Below are positions 23,928 to 47,523 of a stretch of 64,000 bases of DNA, piece by piece (position 1 is the stretch's first letter; each line of letters begins with the position of its first letter). Source of the stretch: an uncultured Nitrososphaerota archaeon (lineage in GTDB: Archaea > Korarchaeota > Korarchaeia > Korarchaeales > Korarchaeaceae); contig CAZQNA010000004.1 in assembly GCA_964594835.1 (NCBI GenBank), positions 96,001-160,000 on the forward strand. The letters are read 5' to 3'. A program made the translations under genes and the position numbers. A model generated the notes under the pieces. That model made no database searches. It had not been told where the DNA came from and was given only the letters and a program-made list of their open reading frames with translations.

Positions 23928-24001
23928 GGAGGACGGCGACCGGGGCACCGAACTTATATATTGTGTCCCCGAGGCGGCCGAGAGGAGGGGAAGGAGGGCC
24001 G

Positions 24002-24319
24002 GTGTTCGGCTCTAGGTCGTCGGCTGAGGAGGACTCACAGGTCTCGGAGAAGGAGGTTCGCGTAGTCAGACTGGTTCTCGACATCGTCAAACCCCACAAC
24101 CCAACGATAATCGAGCTCGCAGAGGCTCTGAACGAGCTGCCCGGCGTCTTCAAGGTGGAGATCGACGTCCAGGACTACGACACCAACATCGAGCGCCTGA
24201 AGGTCATACTGGAGGGGGAGGACCTGGACTACGAGGAGATAAGCAGGGTGGTCAAGTACTACGGCGGGAACATCGCCAGCCTGGACGGGGTGACCTCCAC
24301 CTCGGAGGAGTCCGATTAG
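24002..24319 (+). CDS. DUF211 (COG1888) family protein
   Basis: RLVLDIVKPHNPTIIELA, EGEDLDY, GGNIASLD. Confidence 0.85.
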   Translation: MFGSRSSAEEDSQVSEKEVRVVRLVLDIVKPHNPTIIELAEALNELPGVFKVEIDVQDYDTNIERLKVILEGEDLDYEEISRVVKYYGGNIASLDGVTSTSEESD

Positions 24320-24381: not shown

Positions 24382-25713
24382 ATGGGGAGCCCAGCCAGGG
24401 TGTACATCGAGACCCACGGCTGCACGGCCAACAGGGCGGACTCCGACGTGATGGCCGCCCTGCTCCAGGGGGCGGGCTACGAGCTGGTGGGCTCCCCCGA
24501 GGAGGCCGACGTGATCGTCCTCAACACGTGCAACGTGAAGAAGCCGACGGAGGACAGGATGGCGCACAGGATCTCCCGACTGGCTGAGCTCGGCAGGCCC
24601 GTGGTGGCCGCGGGCTGCATGGCGCTGACCCAGCCCTCGAGGCTAAGGGATCACGCCACAGTACTCCTGGGGCCGAAGTCCATTCACAGGATAGTGGAGG
24701 CGGTTGACCTAGCGAGGAGGGGCTCGAGGGCGGAGTTCCGCGACACGTCCCCCATAGACAAGGCCGCCCTCCCGAGGAGGCTGGGGTCGGGCGTGTCGGC
24801 CCCCCTGCCGATAGCCGAGGGGTGCCTTGGGGCCTGCACCTTCTGCATAACCAGGTTCGCCCGCGGGAGACTCAGGAGCTTCTCCCCCCGCCTCATAGTC
24901 GAGAGGGCCTCTGAGTTCCTCCGGGCGGGGGCGGTCGAGCTCCAGATAACCGCCCAGGACACGGCCGCATACGGTCGGGACATAGGGTGGGACCTCCCGA
25001 GGCTCCTCAGGAGTCTCCTGGAGCTGCCGGGGGAGTACAGGGTCAGGGTGGGCATGGCGAACCCGAACACCCTGGCCAGGGTGGTGGACGACCTCCTGGG
25101 GGTCATGGGGGACCCCCGGGTCTACAGGTTCCTGCACGTCCCGGTCCAGAGCGGGAGCGACGAGGTTCTGAGGAGGATGGCCAGGGGCTACAGGGCGTCG
25201 CTCTTTGAGGAGATCGCCTCCAAGTTCCGGACTGCCTTCCGAGACACAACGCTCGCCACCGACGTGATAGTGGGCTTCCCGGGGGAGACCGAGGACGACT
25301 TCGAGTCGACCCTGAGGCTGCTCGAGAGGACGAGGCCCGAGATCGTCAACGTGAGCAGGTACGGACCCAGGCCCGGGACCCTCGCATCCAGGTGGAGGCC
25401 CCCAGACCCCAGGGAGGTCAAGAGGCGCAGCAGGACGCTCTTCTCCCTGGTCAGAGAGCTGGGCCTGAGGGCAAACGAGGCCTACGTGGGCAGGGAGCTC
25501 ACGGCGCTCGCACTGGAGCGTGGCCCCAAGGGGTACCAGGGGAGGACTGACTTCTACAGGCCCGTGGCCCTGCTCGGGGATGACGTGAGGCTCGGGGTCT
25601 TCTACGACGTCGTCGTCGAGGAGGCCAGACCCAGCTACTTGGTCGCCAGGGTGCTGGCCGCCAGGGAGCCTGCCGCCCCGACCGCGGGGGGAGCTCACTC
25701 GGTTGGGAAGTAG
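24382..25713 (+). CDS. MiaB-like tRNA methylthiotransferase (archaeal MtaB/CDKAL1 type)
   Basis: ETHGCTAN, NTCNV, AGC, EGCLGACTFC, HVPVQSGS, IVGFPGET; C-terminal TRAM-like region. Confidence 0.9.
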   Translation: MGSPARVYIETHGCTANRADSDVMAALLQGAGYELVGSPEEADVIVLNTCNVKKPTEDRMAHRISRLAELGRPVVAAGCMALTQPSRLRDHATVLLGPKSIHRIVEAVDLARRGSRAEFRDTSPIDKAALPRRLGSGVSAPLPIAEGCLGACTFCITRFARGRLRSFSPRLIVERASEFLRAGAVELQITAQDTAAYGRDIGWDLPRLLRSLLELPGEYRVRVGMANPNTLARVVDDLLGVMGDPRVYRFLHVPVQSGSDEVLRRMARGYRASLFEEIASKFRTAFRDTTLATDVIVGFPGETEDDFESTLRLLERTRPEIVNVSRYGPRPGTLASRWRPPDPREVKRRSRTLFSLVRELGLRANEAYVGRELTALALERGPKGYQGRTDFYRPVALLGDDVRLGVFYDVVVEEARPSYLVARVLAAREPAAPTAGGAHSVGK

Positions 25714-26789
25714 TCGTATATGGGCCACTGGGCCGGCCTGAACCCCTCCGCGGCCTCCGGCTCCTTGAGCACGAGGACGTAGAGGTTGCTGGAGTAGCCG
25801 ACGACCCTGTCCGCGAGTTCGGGCCTGCCCATCTCCTGGGCGACCTCCTCTGCCAGCCAGTATATCGGGCTGTCCCTTGCCACCACGTATCGGTTCAGTC
25901 CCACGACCACCCTCTCAACCGCGAAGCCCATCTCACCGAAGCTCCTGAACACCCGGCTCATGTGAGAGCCGAGCTCGTCGGGCAGCAGGCAGACGTACCC
26001 CCTCCTCCCCCTCTCCTTCACCAGGGCCTCCCAGCCCCTCAGGGTGAAGGTCTGGACGCCCGGGAGCGTGTACGTGGGGTCCGCCAAGAAGACGTCGTGC
26101 CGATCCCTGAGCCCCTTGGGGATCGGCCTGGTCAGGTCGTGCCTGACGACCCTGATGTCCAGCCCCCTCTCCCTCGCCAGGTCCTCTATCCTCCTGATCA
26201 CCCTCTCGTCTAGCTCGAAGACCGTCACCCTGACGTCGAAGCTGCTGGCGAGGACCAGGCTCTGAAAGTCGTCGTCTCCCATGATCGCCACGCTCTTCCC
26301 GTCCAGGGGAACGTCCGAGGCCACCTCACTCAGCCTCCTGAGGAGGCTCTCCCTAGACACCTGGAGCTGGTCGAACTCGTAGTTGACCTCTATCCTGGGC
26401 ACGAGTTCGACGGCGGACTCGTCCGGCGCCTGCCTGCCGAACGGGTTGACCCTGAACCTCACCCCACCGTCGTCGTCAACCTCGGCCAGGCCGGACTCCT
26501 CCAGGGCCCTCGCCAGGTTAAGGGCCCTCTCGGGTATCAGGGGCCCCTCCCTCACGAGCCTGTCCAGGCGACCGAGCCTGAAGAGCCGGTACGCCAGGAC
26601 CTCGAACTCGAAGGGAGACAGTCTGTGGACCCTCTCCCAGGACACCCTGCCCTCCTCGGGGGACTTCCTCCCGTAGACTGTGCCGGCCGCCTTGACCGTG
26701 GACTCCAGGTCGTACTTGGAGAAGAGCAGGAAGGCCCTCCTCAGCGCCTCCCGGCCAGGCGGGTGACCCCCATCCAACCGCCCACTCAT
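25695..26789 (-). CDS. bpsA: Branched-chain polyamine synthase (N4-bis(aminopropyl)spermidine synthase)
   Basis: FDQ, GDDD catalytic motif, ELDER, HDL--P, ADPTYT, F-RG. Confidence 0.8.
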   Translation of the reverse strand: MSGRLDGGHPPGREALRRAFLLFSKYDLESTVKAAGTVYGRKSPEEGRVSWERVHRLSPFEFEVLAYRLFRLGRLDRLVREGPLIPERALNLARALEESGLAEVDDDGGVRFRVNPFGRQAPDESAVELVPRIEVNYEFDQLQVSRESLLRRLSEVASDVPLDGKSVAIMGDDDFQSLVLASSFDVRVTVFELDERVIRRIEDLARERGLDIRVVRHDLTRPIPKGLRDRHDVFLADPTYTLPGVQTFTLRGWEALVKERGRRGYVCLLPDELGSHMSRVFRSFGEMGFAVERVVVGLNRYVVARDSPIYWLAEEVAQEMGRPELADRVVGYSSNLYVLVLKEPEAAEGFRPAQWPIYDYFPTE

Positions 26790-27157
26790 CTCCCCTGTCT
26801 TTCTCGGGCCCTGCCGGTCTTTATCTCGACGACGCTGTCGTTCTCTGGTCTAAGCCTCTCTCTCAGGAACTCCAGGGCCCTCTCCTGCCAGTCCGACCTC
26901 CCGGGGGCGAAGTCGACTATGTTCACCGTGGCGTAGTCGTGCTCGGGCCAGGTGTGAAGGGCGACGTAGCCCCTCTCAGTGAGCAGGAGGGAGCTAACGC
27001 CGTAGGGCTCGAACTCGTGCACGTGAAGGGCCTTGACCTCGAGCCCGAGAGCCCTCGCGAGGTCCCTCAGCATGGACTCCATCAGGGCGGGGGAGTCGAG
27101 CGCCTCGGACTCCCCCACGTTGTAGAACTCCACAATCACGTGGCTCTCCAGCGACAT
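26786..27157 (-). CDS. AdoMet decarboxylase (SpeD class 1b)-like protein lacking the pyruvoyl cleavage site
   Basis: HEFEPYGVS and HTWPEHDYA are retained, but ESH reads RGY and the DxFTCG segment reads NIVDFAP. Confidence 0.8.
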   Translation of the reverse strand: MSLESHVIVEFYNVGESEALDSPALMESMLRDLARALGLEVKALHVHEFEPYGVSSLLLTERGYVALHTWPEHDYATVNIVDFAPGRSDWQERALEFLRERLRPENDSVVEIKTGRARERQGR

Positions 27158-27204
27158 CCCGTTTTACCGGATCTCTCGCCCTAAAAAAGGCTCGGGGGCG
27201 GGGT

Positions 27205-27879
27205 CTACAGCCCCGCGGAGGAGCCGGGGGACAGCTCGATGACCTCGACGTCCAGCCCCCTGGCCTTGACCTCCTCTCTGAGCTGACCTGGGGTTCCCCA
27301 TAGGACGGGGAACGTCCCGTAGTGAATCGGCAGGACCCGCGGGCTCCCCAGCATCTCCAGCGCCTTACCGGCCTCCCTCGGACCCATGGTGAAGTGGCCG
27401 CCTATCGGGAGGATGGCGAGCTCCGGGGAGTAGAGCTCTCCGATGAGGCTCATCCCCGGGAAGATCCCAGTGTCCCCCGCGTGGTACACCGTGAGCCCGT
27501 CGGGGAACTTCACCACGGCCCCCGTGGGGGCCCCGAGCGGGGAGCTGTGGAGAGCCTCGGTCAGGACTACCTCGACGTCCCCGACCTTGAAGGGCCCGCC
27601 TATGTTCGCCCCGACCGCGTCGGCCCCCCTCTCCGAGGCGTGGTTCGCCAGCTCGAATATCCCCACGACCTTGCCGCCCCTCTCCTTGGAGAGCCTTATC
27701 GCGTCTTCGAGCCCGTGATCTCCGTGTCCGTGCGTGACGACGTACGCCAACACGTCCCCCGGCACCTCTACGCCCCTCGGATACGCCGGGTTGTCCCTTA
27801 TCCACGGGTCGAACAGGACCCTGACGCCCCCGGACTCGACCAGGACGTTAGCGTGGCCTAGGAATGCCACCCTACCCAG
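27205..27879 (-). CDS. UPF0173 metal-dependent hydrolase (MBL fold)
   Basis: FLGHA, DPW, THGHGDH, HSS, YHAGDTG, LPIGGHFTMG, PIHYGTFP. CTG 27879 or GTG 27870. Confidence 0.9.
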   Translation of the reverse strand: MGRVAFLGHANVLVESGGVRVLFDPWIRDNPAYPRGVEVPGDVLAYVVTHGHGDHGLEDAIRLSKERGGKVVGIFELANHASERGADAVGANIGGPFKVGDVEVVLTEALHSSPLGAPTGAVVKFPDGLTVYHAGDTGIFPGMSLIGELYSPELAILPIGGHFTMGPREAGKALEMLGSPRVLPIHYGTFPVLWGTPGQLREEVKARGLDVEVIELSPGSSAGL

Positions 27880-27926: not shown

Positions 27927-28550
27927 TCAGCGGTCCCCGCGTTTCAGGAGCGAGAGGAGTGCGGAGACGATGCCCAGCCTAACCTCGGGGTCCCGCTCCC
28001 TGGGGAGCAGGCTGGCCAGCTCGGAGGTCACCCTGTCCCTTAGGTCCCCCCGCGACGCCGCGATCCCCCACAGGCTGCCCAGCGCCGCGAGGCGGACCCT
28101 CCTGACCTCTCTCCCCGTCCTCAGCACCTCAAGGAGCTTATCCAGCGCGGCCTCCTCTCCCCCCTCCGCGAGCGCCCCCAGGACCTTTACGGCCGCGACC
28201 CTCAGGTCTGGCTCCACGCGATCGAGCCATCGGAGGGCGGATCTTAGGGCCTCCCCCCCGGCCCGGGGAGCAGAGTCCACGAGCAGGACCGTGGCGGCCG
28301 CCCTAAGCCCCCGTTCCCAACCCTCGAACTCCTCGTCCACGATCCTCGACAGGTCCTCCCAGCCCGAGAGATACGCCAGGCATAGCCTGGCGAAGGACTC
28401 GCCACCGGCCGTTCTGGCCCTGGGGACCTCCCCCCTGGAGACGGCCCGAGCTATCTCCGACAGCTCCTCCACGTCGACCGTCTCTCCGTCGCTCGCCGAC
28501 GCGGCTTCGGCCGCGAGGCGTAGGATTTCGGCGAGGCTCTCGTCGCTCAA
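27927..28550 (-). CDS. HEAT-repeat protein
   Basis: Repeated EPDLRVAAVKVLG / RRVRLAALGSL / DPEVRLGIVSAL units. Confidence 0.6.
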   Translation of the reverse strand: MSDESLAEILRLAAEAASASDGETVDVEELSEIARAVSRGEVPRARTAGGESFARLCLAYLSGWEDLSRIVDEEFEGWERGLRAAATVLLVDSAPRAGGEALRSALRWLDRVEPDLRVAAVKVLGALAEGGEEAALDKLLEVLRTGREVRRVRLAALGSLWGIAASRGDLRDRVTSELASLLPRERDPEVRLGIVSALLSLLKRGDR

Positions 28551-28727: not shown

Positions 28728-30440
28728 ATGGTGGAACAGAGCGTAGCAGGGAGGGTAATCAGGGTAGCAGAGAGAGACATACCCATAGGGGGGCCCTCGC
28801 CTCCGATTAGGGAGGGAGAGAAACTTCTGAGGAGGACGCTGTCACTCTGCCCCGAGTGCTACAGGCTTCTTCCGGCCGTGGTGTTCGAGAGGGACGGCAA
28901 GGTATTCATAAGGAGGGTCTGCCCGGAGCACGGGGAGGTCGAGGAGCTCTACTGGGGGGACGCCGGGTTCTACGAGAGGGCCCTCGGGTTCGAGGCCCCG
29001 CCCATGAGGATAGAGCCCATCGTCCCAATGACGGCCCCGTGCCCCTTCAGCTGCGGGCTCTGCCCGGCCCACGGCGACATGACCGCGCTGGCCAACATAG
29101 TCCTCACCAACAGGTGCAACCTCGACTGCTGGTACTGCTTCTTCTACGCCGAGAGGGCTGGCTTCGTGTACGAGCCCTCGCTTGAGCAGATCAGGCGCAT
29201 GATCCGCGTACTCAGGAGCGAGAGGCCAGTCCCCGGGCTGGCGGTCCAGCTGACCGGGGGAGAGCCGACCCTGAGGGACGACCTGGTGGACATAATCAAG
29301 ATGATCAAGGAGGAGGGCGTCAGGCACATTCAGCTGAACACCCACGGCATAACCTTCTTGAAGAGGCCCGAGCTCATGAGGCAGGTCAGGGAGGCCGGGG
29401 TCAACACGATGTACCTCAGCTTCGACGGCGTCACGCCGAGGACCAACGTGAAGAACCACTGGGAGATGCCCTACATCCTCGACATCGCCAGGAAGTCCGG
29501 CATGACGAGCATAGTCCTCGTCCCCACCGTGATAAACGGGTTCAACACCCAGGAACTCGGGGACATAATCAGGTTCGCCGCCCTCAACATAGACGTCATC
29601 AGGGGGGTCAACTTCCAGCCCATATCCCTGACGGGCAGGGTCCCCAGGTCCGAGAGGGAGAGGCTCAGGATCACCATCCCCGACGTCATCAGGCTCATCG
29701 AGGAGCAGACCGACGGCCAGATCCCGATGGACTCGTGGTACCCCATCCCGTTCGTAACGTTCCTAAGCGACCTCGTCGAGGCCCTGACGGGCAAGCCCCA
29801 GTTCAGAATGACGAATCACCCCGCCTGCGGGGCCGCGACGTATGCGTTCCCCGAGTACGAGCGCGTCGACGGAGAGAGGCGGGTGAAGAGGTTCGTCCCG
29901 ATCACGGACTTCATAGACGTGGAGGGGTTCAGGGAGTACGTCCTGGAGAAGGTGGAGGAGCTCAGGTCGGGGGCCAACAGGTGGGTCACGCTCCTCAAGA
30001 TAGCGGCCAACCTCTCTAGGTTCATCGACAGGGAGAGGCAGCCGGAGGGCATCAACGTCCTCTCCCTGATGAGGCAGGTGCTCATGAGGAGGAACTACGA
30101 CGCCCTGGCGGAGTTCCACTACAAGTCCCTCTTCCTAGGGATGATGCACTTCATGGACCTCTACAACTACGACGTCCAGAGGGTCATGAGGTGCAACATA
30201 CACTACCTCTCCCCGGACGGCAGGGTCATCCCGTTCTGCACGTTCAACGTACTCCCCGACCTCTACAGGGACTACGTTCAGAGACAGTACGGCGTCCCAC
30301 TGGAGGAGTACGCCAAGGCGCACGGGACCGGGGCCATCGGACCCGAGAGCAAGTACAGGAGGGACGTGAAGAGGCTCGAGTCGGGAGAACCCTACAAGAG
30401 GACCTACGCCCCCTTCATGCACCTGTGGAGGGAGTCCTGA
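28728..30440 (+). CDS. tes: Tetraether lipid synthase (Tes / GDGT-MAS, MJ0619 family radical SAM)
   Basis: SLCPEC...CPEHG rubredoxin-like motif, CPFSCGLC--H, TNRCNLDCWYCF, GGEPT, FDG, NFQP, HPACG, MHFMD-YN, C-IHY...IPFC. Confidence 0.88.
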   Translation: MVEQSVAGRVIRVAERDIPIGGPSPPIREGEKLLRRTLSLCPECYRLLPAVVFERDGKVFIRRVCPEHGEVEELYWGDAGFYERALGFEAPPMRIEPIVPMTAPCPFSCGLCPAHGDMTALANIVLTNRCNLDCWYCFFYAERAGFVYEPSLEQIRRMIRVLRSERPVPGLAVQLTGGEPTLRDDLVDIIKMIKEEGVRHIQLNTHGITFLKRPELMRQVREAGVNTMYLSFDGVTPRTNVKNHWEMPYILDIARKSGMTSIVLVPTVINGFNTQELGDIIRFAALNIDVIRGVNFQPISLTGRVPRSERERLRITIPDVIRLIEEQTDGQIPMDSWYPIPFVTFLSDLVEALTGKPQFRMTNHPACGAATYAFPEYERVDGERRVKRFVPITDFIDVEGFREYVLEKVEELRSGANRWVTLLKIAANLSRFIDRERQPEGINVLSLMRQVLMRRNYDALAEFHYKSLFLGMMHFMDLYNYDVQRVMRCNIHYLSPDGRVIPFCTFNVLPDLYRDYVQRQYGVPLEEYAKAHGTGAIGPESKYRRDVKRLESGEPYKRTYAPFMHLWRES

Positions 30441-46887: not shown

Positions 46888-47523
46888 TCAGGCAGACTCA
46901 TTCCCGCGAGATCGCTCGAACCTGAGCACCTCTACGCCTATCTCTACACTCCTCCTCCTGTGAAACGGGAACCTCTTCGAAATGGAAAAAGGATATCGCC
47001 AGACGTCGGTGAGCCTGCAGCCGTACCGCGAGGCCACACCGGCCAGGAACTCCCGGTTTCCCTCTCTGTGAATGGAGTAGACCACCCTGGCGGACTGAAG
47101 GGCCCTCACGAGGAACGTCAGGTCGGGGGTTCCCCCCCTCAGGCCGAAGGGAGGGTTCATCACGACCGTGTCGACGCTCCCCCTGAAGTCGACCACGTCC
47201 ATCTCCACGATCTGGACCCTGTCCGACACGCGGAGCCTCTCCGCGTTTCTCACGGCGACTTCAACCGCCCTCGGGTCAACGTCCAGACAGATCACCTTCC
47301 TGGCGCCAAGGAGGGCCGCCCCCAGCCCGAGGATGCCCGATCCGCAGCCGAGGTCGGCCACGGCCCTCCCCCGGACGTCCCCCATGTCGAAGGCCCTGAT
47401 CAGGACCTCCGCGGCCAGCTCTGGGGGCGTCTCGTACTGCTCCAGCTCTGGCCTCGGATGGGGGAGTGGCTCCAGGGAGGAGAGGAGCCTGGCGAGCTCC
47501 CTCTTGCTGGGCCTACTCGCCAC
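46888..47523 (-). CDS. METTL5-family SAM-dependent methyltransferase
   Basis: LEQYETP, DLGCGSG, MNPPFG, VYSIH. Confidence 0.9.
   Translation of the reverse strand: MASRPSKRELARLLSSLEPLPHPRPELEQYETPPELAAEVLIRAFDMGDVRGRAVADLGCGSGILGLGAALLGARKVICLDVDPRAVEVAVRNAERLRVSDRVQIVEMDVVDFRGSVDTVVMNPPFGLRGGTPDLTFLVRALQSARVVYSIHREGNREFLAGVASRYGCRLTDVWRYPFSISKRFPFHRRRSVEIGVEVLRFERSRGNESA

Follow-up and report, generated by a model that had tools for sequence, protein, structure and literature searches.

A SpeD paralogue without the pyruvoyl-forming serine

The stretch analysed here (the window) comprises 64,000 nucleotides of contig CAZQNA010000004.1 (forward-strand positions 96,001 to 160,000; assembly GCA_964594835.1), from an uncultured archaeon of the family Korarchaeaceae. 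It carries a short gene for a SpeD homologue, that is, a relative of the pyruvoyl-dependent S-adenosylmethionine (AdoMet) decarboxylase (AdoMetDC), in which the self-cleavage site has been replaced, and which we consider together with a second SpeD gene of the same genome. We refer to the two types as 'dead' and 'live', according to the loss or retention of that site. The open reading frame (ORF) of the dead type and its diagnostic motifs are listed below in the order in which they are read.

26786..27157, minus strand: Ser-less SpeD paralogue (the 'dead' protein), a 123-aa ORF without Cys, PF02675
26993..27013, minus strand: FEPYGVS, residues 49-55, with F49, P51 and S55 kept (all three invariant in the dead clade)
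26966..26974, minus strand: codons for R62-G63-Y64, which replace the E-S-H self-cleavage site (alignment to 1tlu)
26942..26956, minus strand: HTWPE, residues 68-72, with H68 and E72 kept (both invariant in the dead clade)
26909..26911, minus strand: F83, which replaces the catalytic Cys83 (alignment to 1tlu)

The Pfam family PF02675 (AdoMet_dc) spans the protein at profile positions 1-105 of 107 (E 1.2e-22, 80.7 bits), and the score against the equivalog model TIGR03330 (70.9 bits) falls below its cut-off of 75.65. Residue numbers (49-83) follow Thermotoga maritima AdoMetDC in both SpeD clades, in a register set by an ungapped alignment of the dead-orthologue profile to 1tlu (E 1.8e-20). An AlphaFold model of the protein (mean predicted local distance difference test, pLDDT, 89.7) finds the T. 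maritima and Aquifex enzymes as its best fold matches (template modelling score, TM, ~0.8), with 1tmi and 1tlu of T. maritima at the top of the Foldseek ranking (TM 0.80-0.83). Lower-ranked matches include the AdoMetDC-like domain of human spermine synthase (3c6k, E 2.8e-6), eukaryotic AdoMetDC and a chain of the Trypanosoma brucei AdoMetDC/prozyme heterodimer (5tvm, chain B).

The initial annotation, made from the window's letters, had described a 123-aa SpeD-fold ORF with R-G-Y for E-S-H, with Cys83 gone and with no Cys anywhere, and was right in every detail; the FEPYGVS and HTWPE motifs, the ATGA overlap at 26786-26789 and the GDDD motif of the neighbouring protein that it had noted are likewise all present. 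Its central point, the absence of the pyruvoyl-forming Ser, extends beyond the window: position 63 is Gly in the window protein and in 23/23 orthologues. As far as sequence can tell, formation of a pyruvoyl group from this position is impossible in the 123-aa protein.

An intact SpeD in the same genomes

PF02675 matches two genes in the window genome (G000), the dead gene and a second, ESH-intact speD of the kind that the initial annotation had proposed to look for:

G000:C4:165359-165745: live SpeD paralogue, 128 aa, with GESH and SSCKD, so that Ser63, His64 and Cys83 are present

The live gene lies 42 kb from the dead gene, about 5 kb beyond the end of the window; the corresponding distance is about 25.7 kb in genus g3 and 25-44 kb overall. 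We surveyed 36 genomes of the family (5 of genus g1, 5 of g2, 21 of g3, 1 of g4 and 4 of g5), classing every PF02675 match as dead or live type. Both types occur in 24 of the 36, the dead type only in 6, the live type only in none, and neither type in 6, these being one 70%-complete g3 genome and five g2 genomes. The sole SpeD-like match in g2 is a weak and odd one in genome G018 (L055:2083-2436, 28.7 bits; GQSH, ETWPE, DSCKE), which has a very long branch and is placed with the live clade. In a tree of SpeDs made by a quick method (83 rows, 132 columns), the dead and live clades are each monophyletic (Shimodaira-Hasegawa-like approximate likelihood ratio test, SH-aLRT, 99) with broadly matching internal order, and the dead clade nests among ordinary SpeDs.

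Complementary active-site residues

The residues of the active site are divided between the two clades, as counted over 23 dead-clade and 14 live-clade sequences, all of them distinct:

F49: dead 23/23, live 0/14
P51: dead 23/23, live 0/14
S55: dead 23/23, live 0/14
E62: dead 2/23, live 14/14
S63: dead 0/23 (Gly in all), live 14/14
H64: dead 0/23 (Tyr in all), live 14/14
H68: dead 23/23, live 10/14 (Arg in three g5 sequences, Thr in g4)
E72: dead 23/23, live 8/14 (Gly in G000; Ser or Asp elsewhere)
C83: dead 0/23 (Phe in 19, Tyr in 4), live 14/14

Further live-clade sequences show HTWPN and HTWPD variants, with Asn or Asp at position 72. In g4 and g5, S63, H68 and C83 are split across the two proteins, and no one polypeptide has all three. 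According to the sections of Li et al. (2023, PMC10407285) drawn on here, T. maritima SpeD cannot process itself without these same three residues, which also have a part in catalysis and are expected to be conserved in SpeD-derived arginine and ornithine decarboxylases too. For the eukaryotic enzyme, the accessible portion of Kozbial and Mushegian (2005, PMC1282579) assigns the pyruvoyl Ser, the Cys next to it and a Glu that contacts the base to the N-half, and the His needed for processing and the Glu that binds ribose to the C-half; prokaryotic AdoMetDC has the union of both sets, its sandwich being formed by two identical molecules. Because the residue table matches these halves, the dead clade would represent the 'C-half' residue set, and the 'N-half' residues would be those of the live clade. 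The geometry of residues in the T. maritima dimer is taken from those parts of the two papers and from general background.

Because two half-sandwiches together make up the active site of this fold and the residues of the two clades are complementary, we read the two genes as probably encoding a class 1b AdoMetDC that works only as a heterodimer and has a single composite site. The 123-aa protein would be the non-cleaving subunit of this two-gene enzyme, for which AdoMet is the presumed substrate. The live subunit would self-cleave at S63 to yield the pyruvoyl group and would carry the proton donor, Cys83; the dead subunit would pair with it face to face, like two class 1b SpeD protomers, and would give His68 (for processing and catalysis), Glu72 (the ribose-binding residue of HTWPE), Phe49 and Ser55. 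The mirror site of such a heterodimer would be dead on both sides, leaving one active site per pair, which is the layout of eukaryotic class 2 AdoMetDC and of SpeD-degraded-SpeD fusions, here on two polypeptides. The product, decarboxylated AdoMet (dcSAM), would pass to SpeE and, in two genera including that of the window genome, also to a BpsA-family aminopropyltransferase.

A more tentative proposal, which we regard as possible rather than probable, makes the dead paralogue a maturation and specificity subunit. Live proenzymes with Arg or Thr at position 68, found in at least two genera, would need His68 in trans to form their pyruvoyl cofactor, so that cofactor genesis and AdoMet binding would both depend on the heterodimer; the amount of dead subunit, which in the window's genus is translated together with a BpsA-family consumer, could then set dcSAM output. 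On this view class 2 enzymes arose by duplication, division of the site and later fusion, and the two korarchaeal genes would show that route in a living lineage before the fusion.

Conservation, selection and range

In a search of 41 related genomes, close orthologues of the dead SpeD were found in 19 of the 24 other family genomes, in genera g1, g3, g4 and g5 of this Korarchaeia-like family of hot-vent archaea; the same search gave no close orthologue in g2. G63 and Y64 are invariant in an alignment of 20 sequences, with intact ORFs across the four genera, and are found in 23/23 distinct dead orthologues. The ratio of non-synonymous to synonymous substitution rates (dN/dS) of the dead gene is 0.02-0.28 in 10 of 11 measurable orthologue pairs; the remaining pair is nearly identical (dS 0.05) and gives 0.49, and two further pairs are saturated and stand outside the 11 values. 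The ORF (26786-27157) is covered by contigs of coded runs from two studies with no differing letter listed, although one of these runs may be the window's own source. On these data the G63-Y64 change is old and real and the gene is under purifying selection; where the initial annotation had considered that close orthologues might carry ESH, none does.

A decaying pseudogene or an assembly error would account for the loss of Ser63 and Cys83, and for nothing else. Decay is ruled out by dN/dS values well below 1, in keeping with the intact ORFs in four genera, and sequencing error by the 23/23 distinct orthologues with G63-Y64 together with the covering contigs, and we give this explanation practically no chance.

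The range of both types is narrow. A dead-clade profile run against 1.84 billion representatives found 1 protein below 1e-30, the next best scoring 92.6 bits; among the top 150 representatives that protein is the only one with G-Y at the site. A scan with peptide patterns placed the dead type at 12 loci, beyond which identity is at most 40%, in bacteria, and the live type at 18 loci, beyond which identity is at most 39%. Word-index protein searches returned close relatives only (8 matches for the dead protein, 5 for the neighbouring BpsA-family protein). Across these searches, both clades are confined to one family. Ser-less SpeD homologues were also seen outside it: P0036 (131 aa) is a stand-alone half with HGH at the site and HTWPEH kept, on a contig of only 2138 bp, and P0072 (320 aa) has KAH at the site and keeps HTWPEH.

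The BpsA-family neighbour and the surrounding locus

In the window, the dead gene runs directly into a BpsA-family gene:

25695..26789, minus strand: BpsA-family aminopropyltransferase-like gene, 364 aa, PF01861
26268-26279, minus strand: GDDD of the BpsA-family protein, residues 171-174
26786..26789, minus strand: ATGA, in which the TGA stop of the dead SpeD gene overlaps the ATG start of the BpsA-family gene

The 364-aa protein resembles BpsA, the N4-bis(aminopropyl)spermidine synthase (EC 2.5.1.128; 5xnc), in its match to PF01861 (BpsA_C; E 9.6e-29, 100.8 bits), in GDDD (G171-D174 invariant in 6/6 orthologues) and in its equivalents of D225, E259 and Y290, which the part of a review used here (PMC12979288) describes as acceptor-side residues of Tk-BpsA. 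These equivalents are kept in a phmmer alignment of residues 132-302 to 5xnc_A, a BpsA chain of the Tk type (E 1.2e-16), whose numbering, derived from GDDD, is native + 20. The neighbour differs from BpsA in that the PF01861 match covers profile positions 13-184 of 243 only, in having no NCBIfam match, and in that the C-terminal acidic carrier cluster (E339, D342-E345) is unaligned: it falls outside an alignment that ends at residue 302, and the tail has scattered acidic residues with no aligned cluster. The structural model of this protein is poor (pLDDT 63.8).

A PF01861 gene above cut-off occurs in 6/36 family genomes, only in g1 and g4, and in 0/21 g3 and 0/4 g5 genomes, though the dead gene is kept there. 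It is absent from 24 of the 30 dead-gene genomes, and in these 24 a convergent MiaB-like gene directly follows the dead gene. Where both are present, the BpsA-family start overlaps the dead-gene stop by 1-8 nt in 6/6 genomes. The BpsA module that the initial annotation had placed at the heart of the system is not supported as a core feature, but the coupling is real wherever the gene is found. It is lineage-specific, and we read it as translational coupling that would make a dcSAM consumer and the non-catalytic subunit together.

These data also bear on a prozyme-type regulator or scaffold, which would bind the live SpeD, or BpsA or SpeE, and would activate, stabilise or channel dcSAM while giving no residues to an active site. 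Genomes with the dead paralogue do for the most part carry a live one as well, the translational coupling to the BpsA-family gene is consistent with such a role, and so are the fold matches to the spermine synthase domain (3c6k) and to 5tvm chain B. This explanation leaves unexplained, however, that F49, P51, S55, H68 and E72 are invariant in the dead clade and lost by the live clade, and a BpsA scaffold is not the conserved role, given the 24/30 dead-gene genomes without PF01861 above cut-off; we judge it unlikely. The initial annotation had offered three roles for a non-enzymatic subunit, namely activating a true SpeD, scaffolding BpsA or channelling dcSAM. Partnership with SpeD fits best of the three, though in a stronger form than that of an allosteric prozyme: with F49, S55, H68 and E72, the half-site residues lost from the live copy, the dead protein would contribute to binding and catalysis and would not be purely non-enzymatic. 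That interpretation is overall partly supported.

Other genes around the dead gene and its BpsA-family neighbour are as follows, the first four as matched by Pfam:

23963-24319, plus strand: DUF211 (PF02680) gene
24382-25713, plus strand: MiaB-like radical-SAM methylthiotransferase with a TRAM domain
27205..27870, minus strand: metallo-β-lactamase (MBL)-fold hydrolase gene, directly upstream of the dead gene (PF12706, E 4.1e-21)
27927-28550, minus strand: HEAT-repeat-like protein gene
28728-30440, plus strand: 570-aa ORF, whose relatives flank the cluster in g4 and g5 loci; in our reading of its sequence only, a putative radical-SAM protein

The MBL-fold gene is the constant neighbour of the dead gene in all four genera (also in g3, g4 and g5 loci), with a gap of 47 nt in the window and a stop/start overlap in g3 locus L013. 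This adjacency carries little weight because the genes of the entire region keep their order throughout the family. Within the gap (27158-27204), a TTTTTTA run lies about 30 nt before the dead SpeD ATG. It is a possible TATA-like box of the archaeal kind, from which the dead-SpeD/BpsA pair may be transcribed separately. Elsewhere in the window, a second PF01861-like match at 47134-47463 on the minus strand (G000:C4:143134-143463) lies in a 215-aa frame and scores 21.5 bits, below cut-off; three g3 genomes and one of g4 have weak matches of the same sort, and the match in the window is probably a different methyltransferase-fold protein.

Observations that weigh against an obligate pair

Several points count against the obligate heterodimer. 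The live copies of g1 and g3 keep S63, H68 and C83, and might, from their residues, work as self-processing homodimers. The tree does not join the dead and live clades as sisters; duplication within the lineage, which we considered as the origin of the pair, is not resolved by it. We take F49, S55, H68 and E72 to be the putative equivalents of human F223, S229, H243 and E247, chiefly by their spacing, and the assignment of residues to protomers rests on this mapping and on the literature on eukaryotic halves. The locus scans, in turn, rest on short peptide patterns, which distant relatives can escape. Finally, six dead-only genomes (completeness 63-95%) show no live gene, the live-clade profile having been run on five of them.

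Part of this last pattern has a technical side. In the dead-only genome G022 the contig breaks off within Cas6, some 150 bp short of the expected live gene, and in four other assemblies the live gene stands at the start of a contig. Because of these cases the live gene appears prone to loss at assembly breaks beside CRISPR-Cas, and its place at contig starts is probably due to the nearby CRISPR region. A Cas6 gene lies tail to tail with the live SpeD gene in g1 and g3 (L058:5815-6642, L046:2125-2940), and the live gene's other neighbours are unrelated genes without functional hint. An assembly break accounts for G022; the other five dead-only genomes stand as a caveat.

Such genomes would suit a stand-alone ligand-binding protein, with a pocket of the AdoMet, dcSAM or methylthioadenosine type, that served as a sensor or carrier independently of the live SpeD. 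The conserved adenosine-side residues agree with this, as do the six genomes with a dead gene and no live gene found, and the constant neighbour is an MBL-fold hydrolase gene and not a polyamine gene. A homodimer of the dead protein, however, would set its intact half-site against its own G63/Y64/F83 side, and the degeneration of the half-site in the live clade would be left unexplained. At least one dead-only case (G022) is an assembly break, and the MBL-fold neighbour carries little information where the surrounding genes are collinear as well. We consider a free-standing binder of this kind very improbable.

Polyamine pathway context

The window genome has one SpeE and one agmatinase, and a search of that genome did not find PdaD. 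Strong SpeE matches occur in 4/5 g1, 19/21 g3, 1/1 g4 and 3/4 g5 genomes and in 0/5 g2 genomes, the same genera as the SpeD pair. The candidates for a diamine-forming decarboxylase differ across the family: OKR_DC_1 (AAT-fold) is found in 4/5 g1, 1/1 g4 and 4/4 g5 genomes, Orn_Arg_deC_N (alanine-racemase-fold) in 18/21 g3 genomes and PdaD in 5/21 g3 genomes. The type thus varies by genus, both as seen in the window genome (G000:C6:63481-64254) and family-wide, and from these gene contents it seems that a single family has seen replacement of the enzyme that opens polyamine synthesis. According to the portion of the review consulted (PMC12979288), most Crenarchaeota are without branched polyamines.

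This inventory speaks to the possibility that the live copy has taken on, as crenarchaeal SpeDs have, the decarboxylation of arginine or ornithine, which would be why its adenosine-binding residues are gone, with the dead copy in an unrelated role. Arginine and ornithine decarboxylases that arose from SpeD occur widely and shed residues that bind the substrate, as stated in the sections of Li et al. used (2023, PMC10407285), and PdaD was not found in the window genome. The argument that the live copy must be an arginine decarboxylase since PdaD is absent is weakened by the finds of OKR_DC_1, Orn_Arg_deC_N and PdaD; because other candidate diamine-forming decarboxylases exist in every genus with the pair, the live copy need not fill that place. 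SpeE, and with it the BpsA-family protein in g1 and g4, would moreover have no source of dcSAM. H68 is kept in all active forms in the part of Li et al. available (PMC10407285), yet is Arg or Thr in 4/14 live sequences. A switch of the live copy to arginine or ornithine is, on this balance, hardly to be expected.

Natural fusions and known systems

The arrangement proposed for the heterodimer has counterparts in single polypeptides. Among the best matches of the dead-clade profile, nine proteins have two matched stretches and are tandem SpeD-SpeD proteins; of nine proteins examined in detail, two, P0009 and P0015, have their residues split as in the korarchaeal pair:

P0009 (271 aa): N-half with ESH, Cys and HTWPQ; C-half with RAH, no Cys, F49, P51, S55 and HTWPEH
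P0015 (386 aa): N-half with ESH, Cys and RTFPS; C-half with EHL, Tyr at 83, F49, S55 and HTWPEH

The sections of Li et al. (2023, PMC10407285) to which we refer describe a 271-aa fusion of this kind from Victivallis vadensis, with a degraded C-domain, that is an active AdoMetDC, restores spermidine synthesis and is cleaved only once. The same sections propose SpeD fusions as a route to eukaryotic class 2 AdoMetDC and state that no SpeD fusion was found in extant archaea. P0012 (269 aa) is a tandem SpeD-SpeD protein, one source title of which reads 'MAG: adenosylmethionine decarboxylase [archaeon]'; its N-half has ESH and Cys, its C-half KSH and no Cys.

SpeD-degraded SpeDC fusions and eukaryotic class 2 enzymes are like the korarchaeal pair in that one half carries Ser and Cys, the other is uncleaved, and there is one site. 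They differ in that their halves share one polypeptide, whereas the korarchaeal halves are archaeal and encoded by separate genes 25-44 kb apart. The bacterial dead half is derived from ornithine decarboxylase according to the text of Li et al. used here (PMC10407285), whereas the korarchaeal dead clade nests among ordinary SpeDs.

The T. brucei prozyme (5tvm) is likewise a dead, unprocessed paralogue beside a live AdoMetDC in the same genome, although pairing is presumed in the korarchaeal case, and control of activity through the amount of dead partner is conceivable there too. The prozyme is a full class 2 protein with two halves and relieves autoinhibition by edge-to-edge dimerisation (from the portion of Volkov et al. 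2016, PMC5201418, drawn on), whereas the korarchaeal dead protein is archaeal, is a single class 1b half of 123 aa and would form its site face to face. The N-domain of human spermine synthase (3c6k) is a further inactive SpeD-fold module associated with an aminopropyltransferase. There the AdoMetDC-like domain forms one chain with the transferase and has its role in dimerisation. The korarchaeal dead SpeD, in contrast, is a separate protein, keeps the HTWPE-side residues and is found in genomes most of which are without a BpsA-family gene.

With the crenarchaeal SpeD-derived arginine decarboxylase the korarchaeal system shares the presence of two SpeD paralogues with diverged roles in a Thermoproteota genome. 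Giles and Graham reportedly showed in 2008 that S. solfataricus SSO0536 is such a SpeD-derived arginine decarboxylase. Both Sulfolobus SpeD paralogues self-cleave at the conserved Ser and are separate enzymes, whereas one of the korarchaeal paralogues is without Ser63. The fold is ordinary and the arrangement unusual, a variation on the kinds known from prozyme, from SpeD-degraded-SpeD fusions and from class 2 AdoMetDC.

Implications

A search of the papers available found no description of a split two-gene AdoMetDC in Korarchaeia, and no paper joining Korarchaeum, spermidine and decarboxylase. For annotation the consequence is a correction: in this family it is the gene unable to make the cofactor that scores as 'SpeD' and has the canonical motifs. 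Being two small and thermostable proteins, the pair would also be convenient for simple tests of self-processing in trans and of how a dead paralogue turned indispensable. The known forms of pyruvoyl AdoMetDC are the prokaryotic homodimer of identical halves, the fused one-site pseudo-dimer of eukaryotes and some bacteria, and the trypanosomatid full enzyme with its dead full-length activator. If our reading of the korarchaeal genes as a heterodimer is true, separate half-size genes dividing one active site would be a fourth form of the enzyme, and this two-gene form would be the state expected just before fusion.

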